Shown here in pieces: positions 4,170 through 63,993 of a stretch of DNA of 64,000 nucleotides. A model generated the notes under the pieces. It did no database searches, was not told where the DNA came from, and saw nothing but the letters and a program-made list of their open reading frames with translations. A program made the translations under genes and the position numbers. The stretch spans positions 25,375 through 89,374 of the forward strand of contig JBHLRS010000013.1 in assembly GCA_048882325.1 (NCBI GenBank), given 5' to 3'. Numbering within the stretch: position 1 is the first letter of the stretch; the number at the start of each line of letters is the position of its first letter. This DNA is from Candidatus Thorarchaeota archaeon (GTDB lineage Archaea; Asgardarchaeota; Thorarchaeia; Thorarchaeales; Thorarchaeaceae).

Positions 4170-4910
4170 TTAGCGAGGCATCAGCAAAACTGGATTCTCG
4201 AGTAGTGGGCGTACTGCATCCTTCACCATAAACTGTTCATCACCCACTTGAACCTCTAGGAGTTTTCTAAGTTCAAACCTGCGAAGATATCCGACAGCTT
4301 GGTCTCGTTCTAAGTTAAGATCCTTCATCATCTTGCTTAGCCCTTTCTTGTCACCACTGAATTCAGCGAATTTTCCAAAGACTGAACTCCATTGCATCAT
4401 TACTAGATACAGCAATGTACGAAGCATGCTGTCAACATTTTCACCAGTCTTTGCTGATACAGGGAAGACTGGGAGTCCTGCAAGAAACCGAAGGTTCTTT
4501 CTTAGTTGGTCAATTGGTCTTGACTCAGGAATATCTTGCTTGTTTGCGGCCACTACACATGGCACACCAGGTAGGAAGAATGCAATCTCCCTGAAGAATA
4601 GCTTTGCTCTAGCATCAGATTCAGGGTCAACTGAATCTACTACAAAGATTATACCATCAGCTCCTTCACTGAGAATCTTTCTCATTGTGCGAAAACGAAG
4701 TAGACCCGGGGTTCCAAACATAAAGACGTTTAACCCATCTACATTTGCTAGACCGTGATCCATAGCTATTGTAGTACCCCTACGTTCAACATTGATACAT
4801 TGGCCATTGGTGATATGATGAATCATCTGGCTCTTACCAGCTTCATAGGGACCTGTAACGACTATCTTCATTCGACCACCAAATTCTAACTCCGAATCAG
4901 TGTGTTTCAA
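4170..4910 (-). CDS. MglA/CvnD-like small GTPase with C-terminal helical/wHTH extension
   Basis: GPYEAGKS P-loop, TTIAMDHG, FGTPG, NKQD, SAK motifs. Confidence 0.85.
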   Translation of the reverse strand: MKHTDSELEFGGRMKIVVTGPYEAGKSQMIHHITNGQCINVERRGTTIAMDHGLANVDGLNVFMFGTPGLLRFRTMRKILSEGADGIIFVVDSVDPESDARAKLFFREIAFFLPGVPCVVAANKQDIPESRPIDQLRKNLRFLAGLPVFPVSAKTGENVDSMLRTLLYLVMMQWSSVFGKFAEFSGDKKGLSKMMKDLNLERDQAVGYLRRFELRKLLEVQVGDEQFMVKDAVRPLLENPVLLMPR

Positions 4911-5034
4911 GTATTCTGCTGCTCATTATAAGGTTTGTAGTGCTATTATCGGTCTAACAACTTCCGGCGCCACAATGCATGTTTCAGACACTAATTTCAT
5001 TGAATTGCGCAATTTGAGAGAACAGAGTAGGATG

Positions 5035-5113
5035 GAGACCGGCCGCTCGCAACGGCAGTCCTCAAACTCGGGCCCCAGTGGGATTTCCAATGTCATCATG
5101 GGAACTCGGTCTC
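5035..5113 (-). promoter_or_regulatory. Eukaryote/Loki-type SECIS element overlapping the selD stop codon
   Basis: Minus strand GAGACCG AGUUC cc AUGA UGACAUUGG AAA UCCC acu GGGG CCCGAGUU UGA GGACU GCCGU ugcga GCGGC CGGUCUC. Contains AUGA/GA core, ~9-bp upper stem, unpaired AAA, apical ministem and closing helices. Confidence 0.8.
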
Positions 5114-6130
5114 AATGAACTGAACATCCTGTGCAAGTTTTGCAGAGGGTGATCCATTAGATTTCACGACTTTGCCTACAGGCCAACAAGGCAGATTCTT
5201 CTCCTCAAGTGTGTTGCAGAACTCCTCGACCTTTGTGGAATCGAGGAACACAAGCATGCCACCGGCGGTTTCAGCACCAAGTCCAGTCGCGAGCTTATGA
5301 CCAAAGAACTCTGCAAGCTCGAGTGTGCCACGAATAACAGGAATCCGCTCAATGACCACACTGACATCACTAAGAGAACAGACATTCCCAGCATGACCGA
5401 GAAGGCCAAACCCTGTGACGTCCGTAGCAGCATTTACCTCAACTGCTCTCATCGTTTCAGCAACCTCCAGATTACTGAAGGTCATTAGTCTAACAGCAAC
5501 ATCTTGTATTCGTTTTAGGTCACTCTCTTTGAACTTGGACAAGAGCACATCACGCTTCTCATCTTTGAGGTCTCTATATGATCTCATCGCTGGTTGAATA
5601 CCCAATGGTTTAGTCAGAAGAACTGCATCACCTGGTTTGGCTCCATGTGAATAGACGACTTCACTAGGGTGTGCAGAACCCAGAGCTATTCCACCAAACA
5701 CGGGAACTGGATTCCTGATTGTCTGACCACCAGCGAGCTTCGCATCATGCCTTTCCATAAAGGTCTTCATACCTTCGAGGACACCTACAACAATATTTTC
5801 AGGTAGTTCTATGGGATAAGCAAGAAAAGCCTGAAGCGAGAGAAGTTTCGTGACACCCATAGCAAAGATATCATTGGTCGCATTGCACGCGACAATCTCT
5901 CCCTGTATCTGAGGGTCATCATGTATCGGTGTGAAGATATCCACATTTTCTACAATAGCCACATCATCGTTGACGATACGGACCACAGCATCGTCCCCGA
6001 TTTCCTCGGTTACGCATTCACCTAACGGAAGAAGACCAGCGGTCTGTAGAAGACGAGTGAGATCATCCTGGTTGACCTTGCAGCTTCAGCCATGAGAAGT
6101 TACCATTGCAGTCAACCGCACTTCATGCAC
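5096..6130 (-). CDS. selD: Selenide, water dikinase SelD, selenocysteine-containing (UGA at 6086-6088)
   Basis: The track ORF extends upstream in frame through TGA to give MHEVRLTAMVTSHG-U-SCKV...IGDDA. SelD motifs present: NATNDIFAMG, GGQT, LTKPLG, TDVTGFGLLGH, ETAGG. Start is GTG 6130 or TTG 6142, with GGAGG upstream. Confidence 0.95.
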
Positions 6131-6282: not shown

Positions 6283-7728
6283 TTGGATATCAAGAAGGTC
6301 TCGGAAAACATTCATGAAATTCCAAAGAGCACACAAGCGTGCATGAAGGTCCCTGTAAAGGTGTTTGCTTCTGACAAACTCGTGCAGAAGATGCGTCAGG
6401 ACAAGACCTTCACTCAGGCAACTAATGCAGCTTGCTTGCCTGGAATCTATAAACATAGCATTGTATTGCCGGACGGACATCAAGGCTATGGATTCCCCAT
6501 TGGTGGTGTTGCAGCTACAGATTATGATTCAGGCGTGATTTCTCCAGGGGGAGTTGGATATGACATCAACTGCGGTGTTCGGGTATTACGGACTAATCTG
6601 GATGAAAGCGATGTCAGACCGAAGATCAGAGACCTTATCGACAGGCTCTTCGAAGAGGTTCCTACCGGTGTGGGTAAGCAGGGTAAAATAGACCTACGCA
6701 ACCACAGCGGTGTAGATGAGGTTCTAGCAAATGGGGCAACATGGGCTGTGGAACAGGGCTATGGATGGGATGAAGACCTGGACCATCAAGAGGCCAACGG
6801 CAGGCTCGAAATCGCAAATCCTTCTGATGTTCCAGACTCTGCAAAGAATCGAGGCATCAAGCAGAGTGGTACCCTTGGTTCGGGCAATCACTTTCTTGAG
6901 ATACAGGTCGTAGATGATATCTACGACGAAGAAGCTGCAAAACGTATGGGTATAACAAGAAAGAAACAGATCATGGTAATGATTCATAGTGGGTCTCGCG
7001 GTCTCGGACATCAAGTGTGCTCTGAATACATCAAGACGATGACCCAAGCTATGAGAAAGTACAACATAGAACTTCCAGATAGAGAACTATGCAGCGCACC
7101 CACTACGTCACCAGAGGGACAGGCTTATCTCGGAGCCATGAGCGCAGCAGCAAACTACGCTTTTGCGAATAGACAGGTCATGATGCACTGGACAAGAGAG
7201 GTATTTGGAAAGGTTCTAGGTAGTACACCAGAAGACCTGGATATGGGTCTGATTTATGACGTTGCTCACAATATGGGCAAAATCGAGGAGCACGAGATAG
7301 ATGGCAAGAAAACCAAGGTTGTTGTCCACAGAAAGGGTGCTACTCGAGCATTTCCACCGGGACACCCAGATGTGCCTACGAAATATCGAGATATCGGACA
7401 ACCGGTGATTATCCCCGGAACCATGGGTACAGCATCGTACATCCTTATCGGAAACGAGAGAGGGATGGACTTGACGTGGGGGTCAACTGCGCATGGGGCT
7501 GGTCGCTTCATGAGCCGATCGAAAGCCAAGAAACGTTTCTTTGGAAAAGAAGTTCAACAGGATCTTGCTTCCGAGGGGATTCTTGTGAGGGCAACCAAGG
7601 GTATCGTAATAGCAGAGGAAGCCCCGGGTGCATACAAAGATGTTGATGAAGTTGTGAAAGTGTCTGATGCAGTTGGAATTGCTACAAAGGCTGTCAGACT
7701 ACGACCTATCGGTGTTATCAAAGGTTGA
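6283..7728 (+). CDS. rtcB: tRNA-splicing ligase RtcB
   Basis: LPDGHQGYGFPIGGV, GYDINCGVR, GNHFLE, HSGSRG, HNM, HGAGR motifs. Confidence 0.97.
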   Translation: MDIKKVSENIHEIPKSTQACMKVPVKVFASDKLVQKMRQDKTFTQATNAACLPGIYKHSIVLPDGHQGYGFPIGGVAATDYDSGVISPGGVGYDINCGVRVLRTNLDESDVRPKIRDLIDRLFEEVPTGVGKQGKIDLRNHSGVDEVLANGATWAVEQGYGWDEDLDHQEANGRLEIANPSDVPDSAKNRGIKQSGTLGSGNHFLEIQVVDDIYDEEAAKRMGITRKKQIMVMIHSGSRGLGHQVCSEYIKTMTQAMRKYNIELPDRELCSAPTTSPEGQAYLGAMSAAANYAFANRQVMMHWTREVFGKVLGSTPEDLDMGLIYDVAHNMGKIEEHEIDGKKTKVVVHRKGATRAFPPGHPDVPTKYRDIGQPVIIPGTMGTASYILIGNERGMDLTWGSTAHGAGRFMSRSKAKKRFFGKEVQQDLASEGILVRATKGIVIAEEAPGAYKDVDEVVKVSDAVGIATKAVRLRPIGVIKG

Positions 7729-30976: not shown

Positions 30977-32644
30977 TCACAACACACTCATGACGCGTTT
31001 CAAGACCCATTCATTTCCTAGAAGATTGAGAAAGCCACCAAGTCTAGGACCCGATTTTCTAGATATCAGGATTCTATAGAGAACAACAAAAGCCCGCTTG
31101 TCTTTCAGACCAACTTCTCTTGCAGTTTCGAATACCTTCCCCTGTAGCTCCTCGTCATCAAGAGGGTCCCCTTTCAGTACATCGACGAATTGCCGGAGGA
31201 AATCTCTATCTGCATCGGTAAGAGTATCAATGATTTCCTTGGGAACAGAGTCAGGAACTGCAACTCGGTCTCGTTCACTACCAAATTCCTCGGCCCAGTT
31301 CAAAGCTCTCGTGAGCCTTGTTGGAATCAACGATTTGGCGAGGGGGGGAATCGCGGAAAGATTGTATTGTTTTTTCAAGACGTCATAACATCTTTGTAGG
31401 ATTGCTTCTTCACTCAGAATTTCTTGAAGTTGTGAGGTTATAACAGCGAATTTGAAAGGCAATTTTGGAATATACTCTTCACTGAGTGTGCGTACTTCAG
31501 TGAGAGGATATAGGATCTTAGCTAATTCCTGCTTCTCACTATCTACATCATCTAATCCATAATACTCTCGCTCAAACGATTCGTAGATGTCAACTAAATC
31601 AGGAATGAGATCGGTTTGAACATTGTTTGCCTTTTCTGGATCAGTCCTTAGAATCATATACCTGAATAATTCTGCGGGAGCAATATTCAACCACTCCCTT
31701 GGTGTGAAAACATATCCTCTGGAAGTCCCCATATCTCGCCCACCAAGACGAACCCATTCAAATGGAACTTTGACAGGACCTGCCCAACCGAACACCCGTC
31801 GAGACATCTCAAGACCAGTATCATAAGACCCGCCCTTAACAGCATGGTCCTTCCCGGCTGGCTCACAGGTCGTCTTCATGACGTACCATTTCGCAGGCCA
31901 GTCAACTCTCCATGACAACTTCAACCTGATTTTGTCGAGTTTCACTGTCGCTGAATGTCCGCAGTGTGCACATTTGTAAGAAACCTCATCACTCTCCGGA
32001 TTGTATGATGTTACTCGATTGGGTACTATTGATCCCTTACCACCACTCTGTAATCTTCCACACTCTGGACAAACAACTGTGGCAGGATACCAGGTCTTCA
32101 TCGATTCGATATATTCTGCCTTCTGTTTCTCATCAAAGTCGCGAGCGACATACTCAATCAGTATCTCTCTGATAGTTTCGGTATGGTTTAGACATATACG
32201 AACAGCCTCAAGCATCTCTTTTGTTTCGTAGAGCTTTGTTTGTGATACAACCTCTGGATCTACTCCAAACTCAGGAAACGTTTCCACTAATTCATTCGTC
32301 CAATGTGCAGCCAAGCTCTCACAGCAACCGTTCGGATCGGGAGCATCTGAGTAGGGAACCCCCATATACTCGTCTGGAGAGAGCGTCAAACTTGGTGGGA
32401 AAGCACGGATTGGATCAAAATCATCTGCAATGAAGACGGTCTTTGCTATTTTACCTATTTTCTGGAGCTCCCGTTTGATGACATCTGCAATTATGACCTC
32501 CTTCATGAAGCCAGCATGAACACTGCCACTCATGCTTTTTCCAGTCACAATTAGATACTGATCGGGATTGCGTTCCAGCACTTCACTGACAATATCTTGA
32601 ATCCAGTGAATAGAGAATTCATCTTGTGATTCATCAGACGACAT
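30977..32644 (-). CDS. lysS: Lysyl-tRNA synthetase, class I
   Basis: SGSVHAG, KLSWRVDWPAKW, EPAGKDH, GPRLGGF. Confidence 0.95.
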   Translation of the reverse strand: MSSDESQDEFSIHWIQDIVSEVLERNPDQYLIVTGKSMSGSVHAGFMKEVIIADVIKRELQKIGKIAKTVFIADDFDPIRAFPPSLTLSPDEYMGVPYSDAPDPNGCCESLAAHWTNELVETFPEFGVDPEVVSQTKLYETKEMLEAVRICLNHTETIREILIEYVARDFDEKQKAEYIESMKTWYPATVVCPECGRLQSGGKGSIVPNRVTSYNPESDEVSYKCAHCGHSATVKLDKIRLKLSWRVDWPAKWYVMKTTCEPAGKDHAVKGGSYDTGLEMSRRVFGWAGPVKVPFEWVRLGGRDMGTSRGYVFTPREWLNIAPAELFRYMILRTDPEKANNVQTDLIPDLVDIYESFEREYYGLDDVDSEKQELAKILYPLTEVRTLSEEYIPKLPFKFAVITSQLQEILSEEAILQRCYDVLKKQYNLSAIPPLAKSLIPTRLTRALNWAEEFGSERDRVAVPDSVPKEIIDTLTDADRDFLRQFVDVLKGDPLDDEELQGKVFETAREVGLKDKRAFVVLYRILISRKSGPRLGGFLNLLGNEWVLKRVMSVL

Positions 32645-32693
32645 CTATCTCTCCTCGGATAACCCCCAAGTTCGAGCTTAAAGAACATTATCA

Positions 32694-34547
32694 TCAAGAG
32701 GAGAATTCTGAGACTATCAGGTCAGTTCTTGTGGCAAAGAATATGTATGTCGGAATGGATGCCAAGAGAATCACTCCGATCATTGTCACCATGACTGCGA
32801 CAATTGACAATGGAAGATATGCCAATGATGGAACAGCGGCCTCAGGTATTAACATATAGATACTAAGAAGTGTGCTGACAATGAGTGCAGGAATTCCAGC
32901 TCTCAGTCCAACTTCTAGGCCTTCTGCAATCATCACCTTAGCAATGAAAGATGGTTTTGCTCCTACTGACCGCATGATTATGTAATCTCGAAGACGACCG
33001 AACACTGAAACTAGTAGATAGTTCATTAGACTCAGGAACGCGCTAAGTAGAGTAACAAGAGCAAGTGGATTCAAGAGTGCCCAGATGGCATCAATTGTTT
33101 CCAGATTTCCTTCTAGTACATCCTGTTGTCTGAAGATACCAAATCCATAACTCTCAGCAAGAATCTCAATTTCACTAATGAGTGAGTCATCATAATCTTC
33201 AAGCTGAACCAAGACCAAGTTGGTCCCTGAAACCCCAAATGAATTCTGCAGCTCTGAAAGCTCCATCAGGGCCATCATACCACCATTTAGAATGTCAAAA
33301 GCCTGTGCTTTGATTTCGAGTGTATTTCCTTGTACCTCAAGGTTTTGTATGAGAGGATCTTCGAAGAGGTCACTAGCCATCTTTCCCCCAATCCATACCT
33401 GTTCTGTGTTCTCAGGAATACGACCTTCATAATACCAATCAGAGATTGATGAATCCCAATTGATACCAACTAGTACCGCATTTGATGTTCGGTCTTCTCC
33501 AACAATCTCATACTGCTCCAGCTCTTCATTCCAGACAGTAACTCGTTTCGCTTCAATTTCAGAATAGACCACAAGACGTTGTTCAACAGCGTACACACCT
33601 AAAATATCTCCCAGGTCTGTTGTTAATGCACTGGGTATCATATCTGAACTGCTAAGATAGTTGAAACTGTTGTCAAGAGGAGAACCATAGAGCGAGTATG
33701 AGTCGTAGTAGGAATCAAGAAGGTCAGGATTCCCAACTGCGACAATGTTTTCTCCCATTGAACGTGTCACGTATGAACTTGAGGTTGTGTGAACCACTCC
33801 ACCACCAATCCAGAGAATAGAAGCAATCGTAAAACTCAGGAAAAGAGACAGTACCGTCCGCCTTGTACCTTTCAATCTTCTTCCTGTTCCTTTTGTGGCA
33901 ATACGGAAAGAAAGGCCAAAACTATCAAGAAATCCTGAAACACGGACCTTTGTCCCGACATCGGGGTTCAGAGCGAGGGAGGGAGACTCTTGAACTGTGT
34001 CATAGATTGGCTTTTGAGCTGAAAAGTACCCGGCGATAACAAGGACCACGGCTAAAACTGACAATTGAATAATTGGAAAGGAATTGGTCAGTTGAATATT
34101 GGGAATGAAACCACTTAGCCAAATTATTCCAGCTATGTACAGAATTGTACCGAACGACAGTCCAAGTACAATACTTGCCAACAGCATTATCACTGATTGA
34201 GCCATAAAGAAATCAAAGATCGTGTCTAGGAGTGTTCCTATTGATTTCATCAAACCAATATCGCGACGCCTAGTCACCATCTCCAACGAGATTGTCGTGG
34301 ACACCACTGCCGCACCCAGAACAAAAACAAGGAGTAGGATTGTCCAAACAAAGGTCGAGAAGAAAGTTCCGAAAGATGAAGACAGAGCACTTGCTACTGA
34401 GAAAGTAGATACGTCAAGTAGTACATTCCCAAATAGAAACACAAACGTGGTCGCCGTGACTACACTCGTTAATGAGATGAGAGTGAGAGTTGTCCGAAAT
34501 GGACGTCGTTTCAGATCTCGTGAGGCAAAAATCTGATGTTCAGACAT
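32694..34547 (-). CDS. ABC transporter permease (FtsX/MacB, two permease domains)
   Basis: RRRDIGLMKSIG and RLRDYIIMRSVGA with an extracellular domain between. Confidence 0.88.
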   Translation of the reverse strand: MSEHQIFASRDLKRRPFRTTLTLISLTSVVTATTFVFLFGNVLLDVSTFSVASALSSSFGTFFSTFVWTILLLVFVLGAAVVSTTISLEMVTRRRDIGLMKSIGTLLDTIFDFFMAQSVIMLLASIVLGLSFGTILYIAGIIWLSGFIPNIQLTNSFPIIQLSVLAVVLVIAGYFSAQKPIYDTVQESPSLALNPDVGTKVRVSGFLDSFGLSFRIATKGTGRRLKGTRRTVLSLFLSFTIASILWIGGGVVHTTSSSYVTRSMGENIVAVGNPDLLDSYYDSYSLYGSPLDNSFNYLSSSDMIPSALTTDLGDILGVYAVEQRLVVYSEIEAKRVTVWNEELEQYEIVGEDRTSNAVLVGINWDSSISDWYYEGRIPENTEQVWIGGKMASDLFEDPLIQNLEVQGNTLEIKAQAFDILNGGMMALMELSELQNSFGVSGTNLVLVQLEDYDDSLISEIEILAESYGFGIFRQQDVLEGNLETIDAIWALLNPLALVTLLSAFLSLMNYLLVSVFGRLRDYIIMRSVGAKPSFIAKVMIAEGLEVGLRAGIPALIVSTLLSIYMLIPEAAVPSLAYLPLSIVAVMVTMIGVILLASIPTYIFFATRTDLIVSEFSS

Positions 34548-35292
34548 TACGGGTTAGCTCTCCTAGCTCCATCTTATATTGGTGGACATTCGATTGATTG
34601 ATTATTCCCTCGTCATGAGTCATAACAATCACAGCCTTTCCTTGTTTGTTCAAATCACGAAGCAGGTCTCGAATCATTTGTCCACTTTCACCATCAAGAT
34701 TGGCTGTGGGCTCATCTGCGAGAATGATAGGAGGATCATTAGCCATAGCGCGTGCTATCGCGATTCGTTGTTGTTCGCCAGAACTGAGCTGCCACGGAAG
34801 ATGGTCAGCACGATCCTCCAACTCAACTCTCTCGAGAAGCTTCATTGCCTCTTCTCGTAACAGTGAATGACTCCGCTCATAAAGCTGCATAGGAAACATC
34901 ACATTCTCAACAGCAGTTAAGGTGGAAACTAGATTATAGCTCTGAAAGATGAAGCCTGTGTTGTTGAGTCTGAAGGATGCACGAAATGATTCATCATAGT
35001 CATTGATGGGAACATCCATGACAAACACCCGACCATTTGTTGGGAGATCTATTGCTCCGATGATATTCAGGAGAGTTGTCTTTCCAGATCCTGACCTTCC
35101 CGAGATTACGACAAAATCACCGGCATCGATAATAAGATTGACATCACGCACAGCCCCAATTGTCGTTTTCCCCAATGAGAAGGCTCTCGAAACATTCTGA
35201 AGGTCCACTGCGTGACGGACTTCTTCAAGATCTTCTGCATCCAAATCGTCCCGAGTATAGTCGACCGCATCTAGATAATCGTCATCAGCCAT
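34540..35292 (-). CDS. ABC transporter ATP-binding protein
   Basis: GRSGSGKT, LSSGEQQR, DEPTANLD; start reset to ATG 35292. Confidence 0.93.
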   Translation of the reverse strand: MADDDYLDAVDYTRDDLDAEDLEEVRHAVDLQNVSRAFSLGKTTIGAVRDVNLIIDAGDFVVISGRSGSGKTTLLNIIGAIDLPTNGRVFVMDVPINDYDESFRASFRLNNTGFIFQSYNLVSTLTAVENVMFPMQLYERSHSLLREEAMKLLERVELEDRADHLPWQLSSGEQQRIAIARAMANDPPIILADEPTANLDGESGQMIRDLLRDLNKQGKAVIVMTHDEGIINQSNVHQYKMELGELTRNV

Positions 35293-63874: not shown

Positions 63875-63993
63875 TGGTGCGGAGGGCGAGATTCGAACTC
63901 GCGATTAGGCCATGAGAGGAGAAATCCGCACATGTACTCCTACGAGACAGGGATCTGAGCCCTGCGCCTTTAACCTGGCTTGGCAACCTCCGC
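63875..63993 (-). tRNA. tRNA-Leu(CAG) with 31-nt intron (63905-63935) at the 3' side of the variable arm; CCA encoded
   Basis: GCGGAGG..CCAGGTTAAAGGCG CAGGG CTCAGAT CCCTG TCTCGTAGGAGT [intron] TC GCGAG TTCGAAT CTCGC CCTCCGC ACCA. Confidence 0.93.

Follow-up and report, generated by a model that had tools for sequence, protein, structure and literature searches.

How can a single mRNA have one in-frame UGA read as selenocysteine (Sec) and another read as stop? The question is raised by selD, the gene for selenophosphate synthetase, in a stretch of 64,000 nucleotides from a Candidatus Thorarchaeota genome (here called the window), where the terminal UGA lies inside the core of a hairpin that resembles the SECIS elements of eukaryotes. 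Behind it stand two questions that are, to our knowledge, long-standing ones: how an archaeal SECIS at the 3' end of an mRNA signals to a ribosome a kilobase upstream, and by way of which binder, and how the eukaryotic SECIS originated. As judged from comparative sequence analysis, the hairpin is a real, functionally constrained SECIS of a known class, whose third arm and family-specific coding overlap are undescribed in the texts that we searched. It very probably serves as the SECIS of selD mRNA in Thorarchaeota and belongs to the eukaryote-like type II class of Asgard archaea. A covarying third arm with a conserved loop, recurring across Asgard families and selenoprotein genes, would change the view of the pre-eukaryotic SECIS and would offer a second concrete target for binding and mutagenesis work. 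Thorarchaeota selD also provides a natural experiment, in which one RNA appears to be under coding, termination, and structural constraint at once.

The selD gene and the hairpin at its 3' end

The selD reading frame spans 5096..6130 on the minus strand of the window (344 codons plus stop) and starts with a GTG at 6130 or, alternatively, with a GTG at 6121. Translated with TGA as Sec (U), it reads ...RLTAMVTSHG-U-SCKV..., which places an in-frame UGA (6088-6086) at codon 15 within the catalytic motif SHG-U-SCKV. The product passes the NCBIfam SelD model NF010705 (301 bits; cut-off, 291), and each selD orthologue in 52 genomes of the Thorarchaeota family has a single in-frame TGA. The same genome encodes tRNA-Sec (contig C26:31242-31332, found with aragorn) and selB (C26:33688-34722, TIGR00475 above cut-off); the two lie within 3.5 kb of each other (31242-34722). 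Upstream of selD and divergent from it is an open reading frame of 481 amino acids (6283-7728, plus strand) that, by the look of its translation, we take to encode an RtcB-like RNA ligase. A SelD-like domain also occurs in open frames of 740 to 760 amino acids without an in-frame TGA in five genomes of the Thorarchaeota family, three of the same genus and two of other genera (G001, G002, G012, G032, and G034). A Sec-type selD match to the same query was absent in four of these five, G034 having both, and the window SelD itself matches NCBIfam TIGR04369 ("oxidoreductase/SelD-related fusion") well below cut-off. These long frames without TGA may be an alternative to Sec use.

The RNA of interest is the reverse complement of positions 5035-5113, and its first 18 nt (5113-5096) are the last five selD codons and the stop. 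In the basal helix, H1, the 5' strand GAGACCG (5107..5113), which comprises a Glu codon, a Thr codon, and the first base of the next codon, pairs with CGGUCUC (5035..5041) in the 3' UTR. Above it lies helix H2, the C helix of a putative kink-turn, in which AGUUC (5102..5106), likewise coding, pairs with GGACU (5057..5061); an alternative register uses UCC (5100-5103). The 5' core follows as CC-AUGA (5101-5096; AUGA at 5096..5099). Its A (5099) closes the last Pro codon and its UGA (5098-5096) is the selD stop, so that the 5' G.A/A.G strand of the kink-turn comes from the stop codon. The upper arm (5065..5094) has a stem of about 8 to 9 steps, in which GACAUUGG (5094-5087) faces CCCGAGUU (5072-5065) over eight positions that include two mismatches in the window sequence; it continues with an unpaired AAA (5086-5084) and ends in the ministem UCCC/GGGG with the loop ACU (5083-5073). 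The 3' core strand, U-GA (5062..5064, with GA at 5063-5062), completes the kink-turn. A side hairpin (5042..5056) starts 5 nt after the core GA, its stem GCCGU/GCGGC (5056-5052 with 5046-5042) carrying the pentaloop UGCGA (5051-5047). It closes a three-way junction on which the kink-turn arm would stand, the other two arms being the 7-bp basal helix and the 5-bp side hairpin itself.

The minimum-energy structure of these 79 nt (RNAfold) reproduced every part of the fold that an earlier note on this DNA had proposed by eye (H1, H2, upper stem, AAA, ministem, and side hairpin), with the side-hairpin stem drawn as GCCGU(U)/(A)GCGGC. The folding energy was -29.3 kcal/mol (z = -1.76; 12 of 200 shuffles were as good), and z was +0.53 in a 151-nt context. 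Since the energy of the single sequence is within chance, the case rests on comparative evidence; the window taken alone is only suggestive of a SECIS.

Type II, eukaryote-like SECIS elements of selD have already been published for Asgard archaea, as the texts of PMC4989117 and PMC11227280 attest; the earlier note had said that eukaryote-like SECIS elements are known in this group. The type II pattern in the text of PMC11227280 consists of a core (A/G)UGA...(G/A)A, an upper stem of 7 to 15 bp with at most two mismatches, an unpaired A-rich bulge, a ministem of 2 to 8 bp, and an apical loop of 2 to 6 nt. The window element has AUGA (5099-5096) and GA (5063-5062) in its core, an upper stem of eight positions with two mismatches, and an apex of AAA, UCCC/GGGG, and ACU, and it lies at the 3' end of a Sec-UGA gene in a genome with tRNA-Sec and selB. 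It is predicted to direct Sec insertion. For Thorarchaeia selD, the text of Huang et al. 2024 (PMC11227280) gives GUGA_GA cores, a [U/A][A/G]AA bulge, and GAG_CUC lower-stem pairs. The SPS lokiSECIS of PMC4989117, which corresponds to the Asgard type II eSECIS-like element of PMC11227280, is as described in those texts similar to our element in its core, short upper stem, unpaired As, ministem, and location at the selD end. The models in both texts consist of core, upper stem, apex, and a "lower stem," to which the element described here adds the side hairpin and the junction.

Form 2 of the eukaryotic SECIS (e.g., SEPHS2; RF00031) shares with the selD element the AUGA_AA_GA motif, a kink-turn-like core, a ministem after AAR, and action at a distance. 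In contrast to that form, the selD element has a shorter upper stem, a third arm, and an overlap with the reading frame, so that it does not lie wholly in the 3' UTR. The Rfam models SECIS_1 to SECIS_5 miss it; no Rfam SECIS family reached its gathering score over the window or an E value of ≤10 over 4880-5200. The SECIS of euryarchaeal selD (Methanococcus/Methanopyrus) is also a 3'-end element that acts at a distance, but has a GAA_A bulge between a GC-rich lower stem and a 3-bp GC upper stem where the selD element has a kink-turn core. The earlier note had set the hairpin apart from this Methanococcus type, and the conserved structure indeed contains no such bulge.

Selection on the RNA among Thorarchaeota selD genes

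From 52 species-representative genomes of the Thorarchaeota family, together with database duplicates, we obtained 39 distinct selD tails; two loci with an unreadable selD 3' end (L085 and L086) were left out. That the core UGA is the terminator of selD, as read from the window by the earlier note, holds for all 39: the stop TGA lies inside the SECIS core in every tail, the base before it is A or G in 38, and the protein ends in ...IETEFP or a near variant throughout. Two alignments were made of 36 distinct orthologous 3' ends, one with MAFFT (A1) and the other by realigning A1 to a covariance model (A2). In A1, 85% of cells were paired, 20 of 30 pairs had double changes, and none of 500 shuffles reached any of five measures; in A2, 90.9% of cells were paired and 22 of 28 pairs had double changes. 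The orthologues are related, and the shuffle statistics therefore overstate independence. When the 3' partners in A1 were slid as a control, pairing fell to 31-50%. Conservation and covariation across orthologues, the check on which the earlier note had staked its reading of a eukaryote-type, form-2 (type II-like) SECIS, are thus both present. As for its other proviso, that no better SECIS should lie elsewhere, no competing kink-turn hairpin occurs between 4700 and 6500. A covariance model of the family has one match in the 3.6-Mb genome, which is the selD site (86.7 bits).

Double changes were spread over the arms of the structure. In A2 they affected three of the seven pairs of H1 (99.6% paired), all five of the side hairpin (95.6%), all eight of the upper stem (81.6%), and all three of the ministem (89.3%). 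H2 is nearly invariant, as is the unpaired AAA; the core UGA is invariant in the 36 orthologues, and the G and A of the 3' core are invariant or nearly so, one orthologue having AA. The loop of the side hairpin is always N-G-N-R-A (UGCGA in 15 sequences, CGCGA in 8, CGCAA in 5, UGCAA in 4, AGCAA in 3, and CGUGA in 1). The proposal that the lower helices are built from the last codons is supported, and H1, coding on its 5' side, covaries. For H2 the pairing AGUUC/GGACU is ambiguous in register, with RNAalifold preferring UCC/GGA. The former pairs in 28, 27, 35, 36, and 36 of the 36 sequences, position by position, and its alignment pair 11-60 covaries weakly (368 of 10,000 shuffles); the latter pairs in 35 to 36 of 36 and would leave C-R-U as a canonical 3-nt kink-turn bulge, the arrangement also seen in the Loki-like family.

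An alternative hypothesis is that positions 5099-5113 are conserved purely through selection on the C terminus of the SelD protein (IETEFP) and that pairing with the UTR is fortuitous. The 5' strands are coding and the ...IETEFP motif is well conserved, as this hypothesis would have it. However, because the 5' strand of H1 is coding, its compensatory changes connect codons with the 3' UTR, and these changes include synonymous as well as nonsynonymous ones. Relative to the window, H1 occurs as GAAACCG/CGGUUUC, GAGACUG/CAGUCUC, and GAGGCCG/CGGCCUC: the synonymous Glu codon GAA is paired with UUUC in the UTR, the synonymous Thr codon ACU with CAGU, and GCC (Thr to Ala) with GGCC. Synonymous codon choice in the last five codons is moreover strongly skewed toward the RNA consensus when compared with the body of the same selD genes. 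Pro is encoded by CCR (CCA or CCG) in 35 of 36 tails (35% in the body), Phe by UUC in 38 of 39 (56%), Thr by ACC in 30 of 36 (20%), and Glu by GAG in 34 of 39 (47%). Residue -3 of the protein differs among tails (E, D, G, V, or A), yet the nucleotides on either side are invariant, which argues for selection on RNA. SelD proteins of other Asgard archaea end in ...IEV or ...IEITKI, without TEFP. An explanation by the peptide alone is therefore scarcely credible, and the comparison indicates that the RNA fold, rather than the peptide, dominates selection on the last five selD codons.

The third arm across Asgard families and selenoprotein genes

The selD genes of six other Asgard families are followed by the same parts, in an arrangement that lies wholly after a UAA, UAG, or UGA stop. 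The basal helix starts 0 to 3 nt after the stop, and AUGA core, AAA, ministem, and GA are all present, with side-hairpin loops such as CGCAA, UGCGA, and UGUGA; RNAfold gives the three-way junction in most of these 3' ends. An alignment of 24 selD ends from the Loki-like family (A3) was 94.3% paired, with double changes in 16 of 22 pairs. Four of the five measures were reached by none of 500 shuffles, and the count of further pair types was reached by 16. Covariation in A3 extends to the basal helix, the side hairpin, and both pairs of a 2-bp C helix, and the side hairpin starts 5 to 7 nt after the core GA. In many Loki-like genomes, Sec-containing selD occurs as a tandem pair, and each copy has its own three-armed SECIS (L080/L081; G044, G085, G118, G143, G158, and others).

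Genes other than selD have the same architecture. In the genome of the window, a second selenoprotein gene of the CxxCxxU type (C-V-E-C-I-T-U, about 267 amino acids) ends outside the window on contig C4 (plus strand, about 127094-127200) in ...AAG AUA CGA UGA, where UGA is both stop and SECIS core. In its element, the basal helix (AGAAGA/UCUUCU) is coding, the apex is of type I (loop GUAAAGUAAUGCA), and the side hairpin reads CUGGG-AAGCA-CCCAG; RNAfold predicts the same three-way junction. The three arms (basal helix, kink-turn arm, and side hairpin) also occur behind 16 VhuD/FlpD genes with two in-frame TGAs each (L119-L134, from families f9, f16, and f19), where UGCGA and UGCA are among the side-hairpin loops. 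Six of these genes stop at the core UGA; in others, the stop is a UAG 2 nt ahead of AAUGA. For the 17 non-selD elements, tail shuffles combined by Fisher's method gave p of ~1e-9, a value overstated by the relatedness of the sequences, and the loop motif G-[C/U]-R is present in 14 of the 17, compared with 19% in shuffles. A strict genome-wide pattern scan (core, side hairpin, and basal helix) returned 10 matches, versus 6 in a control on the reversed genome. The two upper-stem mismatches kept it from detecting selD, and only its match on contig C4 was convincing. Four FlpD genes found with Pfam in the window's own genome had neither an in-frame UGA in the matched domain nor a recognizable SECIS downstream, and a single weak Pfam match to NiFeSe hydrogenase in the same genome had no recognizable SECIS after its stop.

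On this comparison, the side hairpin belongs to Asgard SECIS elements throughout the phylum. The earlier note had presented GCCGU/GCGGC as an insertion; it was right that this hairpin makes a three-way junction, and the arm covaries, but it is not an extra specific to this gene. Among the texts of Mariotti et al. 2016, Huang et al. 2024, Sun et al. 2021, and a 2026 review (figures and supplements aside), and in full-text searches, we found no description of the side hairpin or the three-way junction. The nearest structural analogue is the k-junction (Wang, Daldrop, Huang, and Lilley 2014; PMC4005666), a kink-turn within a three-way junction whose third helix is on the nonbulged strand. In the k-junction, that helix lies directly opposite the loop and is coaxial with the C helix, whereas the Asgard junction, which is known from predicted folds, has a C helix of 2 to 5 bp between the G.A pairs and the junction, and its side hairpin starts 5 nt (Thorarchaeota) or 5 to 7 nt (Loki-like) past the core GA. 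The third arm probably stabilizes the kinked junction or acts as a second site of recognition or docking.

The hairpin could also be a generic 3'-end element with no relation to Sec, such as a terminator, an element of mRNA stability, or a box C/D-like kink-turn bound by L7Ae. A perfect box C, AUGAUGA, stands at the core in the window, and the Rfam model GlsR4 has a weak match there with 16 bits (E = 0.8); GC-rich hairpins at 3' ends could moreover stabilize mRNA. The GlsR4 score is far from the gathering score of 70 and is caused by the local AUGAUGA. A box C/D sRNA (C box RUGAUGA, D box CUGA) was rejected because neither the second UGA of the box nor any D box is conserved in the orthologues. 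A terminator scan found no terminator-like site. All motifs of the Asgard SECIS are present, and in this sample the structure stands behind genes that contain an in-frame UGA and that come from several protein families and several Asgard families. A generic role is therefore very improbable.

Termination at a UGA inside the SECIS core

How the core UGA could serve as a stop is best considered from the parts of a functional SECIS. The kink-turn core (R-UGA with GA), the upper stem, the unpaired AAA, and the ministem would together present the signal, and the element, with SelB and Sec-tRNA(Sec) as the binding partners that we infer, would recode the UGA at codon 15, about 975 nt upstream. No SBP2 is reported in Asgard archaea in the texts of PMC4989117 and PMC11227280. 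The genome has the usual two L7Ae-family genes, and a search of it for a further L7Ae- or SBP2-like paralogue found none beyond these two.

During translation, the ribosome encloses roughly 12 to 15 nt of mRNA beyond the P-site codon on the 3' side, and structure is unwound where the mRNA enters its channel. With the terminal UGA in the A site, it would therefore hold the 5' strands of H1 and H2, the core, and most of the 5' arm of the upper stem single stranded, and melting of the SECIS would begin about eight or nine codons before termination. Because there would be no folded SECIS at the moment when the terminal UGA is decoded, this codon would be read as stop, while the UGA at codon 15 could meet a folded SECIS from its distance of about 975 nt. 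Position alone would thus explain how one mRNA can have one UGA read as Sec and another as stop. Such unfolding by the terminating ribosome, which the earlier note had also suggested, is plausible from ribosome geometry and was proposed in essence by Mariotti et al. 2016 (PMC4989117), whose text holds that a UGA too near a lokiSECIS cannot be recoded. The same text describes the lokiSECIS of Lokiarchaeota VhuU.1, whose AUGA doubles as UGA stop and overlaps the coding sequence, and overlaps of stop and AUGA are said to be frequent in Lokiarchaeia in the text of Huang et al. (PMC11227280). VhuU.1 differs from Thorarchaeota selD in being another gene with a type I apex and a single case, whereas the overlap in selD is fixed family-wide and comes with compensation between codons and UTR. 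In the texts searched for the third arm (again, figures and supplements aside), we found no account of a family-wide stop in the core of Thorarchaeia selD with coding lower helices and codon/UTR compensation.

A further possibility is that the overlap of stop and core is an evolved regulatory device, in which ribosomes completing selD melt the SECIS, strip its factors, and so gate Sec decoding at codon 15 or couple it negatively to downstream translation. The feedback control that the earlier note raised as a possibility would then be a loop on selenophosphate synthesis; it finds no support in the present comparisons. A control loop would be meaningful in that the selenium donor needed at the Sec codon of selD is the product of SelD itself. 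The overlap is, in addition, invariant in the 52 genomes of the family and recurs in six of the 16 VhuD genes of other families and in the CxxCxxU gene of the same genome. But overlap, once fixed, would be locked by the double constraint on codons and structure, so that invariance is no proof of adaptation. AUGA gives an in-frame stop in one of three frames, and recurrence is therefore expected from plain loss of an upstream stop. In the six other Asgard families the selD SECIS lies wholly behind the stop, and the overlap is thus dispensable for selD function. We consider a dedicated regulator unlikely. Given that selD of other families works with its SECIS behind the stop and that AUGA yields a stop in a third of frames, the overlap is probably a tolerated state, neutral or driven by compaction, and we regard it as derived within the Thorarchaeota family and later locked in by double constraint.

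We speculate further that the Asgard SECIS could be bipartite, with the N-G-N-R-A side hairpin docking an archaeal SECIS-recognition factor or clamping the kink-turn, and with terminating ribosomes in Thorarchaeota dismantling the resulting ribonucleoprotein; this combined proposal is tentative and, as a whole, rather doubtful. Candidates for the docked factor would be the C-terminal domain of SelB and an Asgard-specific hypothetical protein of Sec gene clusters. Alternatively, the pentaloop could be a candidate tertiary clamp that folds the kink-turn without SBP2. Were the bipartite proposal true, the Sec-decoding capacity of selD mRNA in Thorarchaeota would be tied to its own translation.

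In annotation practice, gene callers truncate this selD, and SECIS finders that are limited to 3' UTRs or to two-helix models will misplace the element. Beyond the SECIS, the next minus-strand gene 3' of selD encodes a small GTPase (4910-4170). A perfect 12-bp palindrome, AATTGCGCAATT, lies at window positions 5003-5014, some 20 nt past the SECIS and roughly 90 nt ahead of the GTPase gene, and TTGCGCAA-like copies are present at the equivalent position in several orthologues of the same genus (L002, L004-L007, and L010). The palindrome may serve the GTPase gene as an operator or promoter element. Near the far end of the window, an Rfam tRNA match on the minus strand (63878-63993) covers 116 nt against a model of 71 positions, which suggests an intron-containing tRNA gene.
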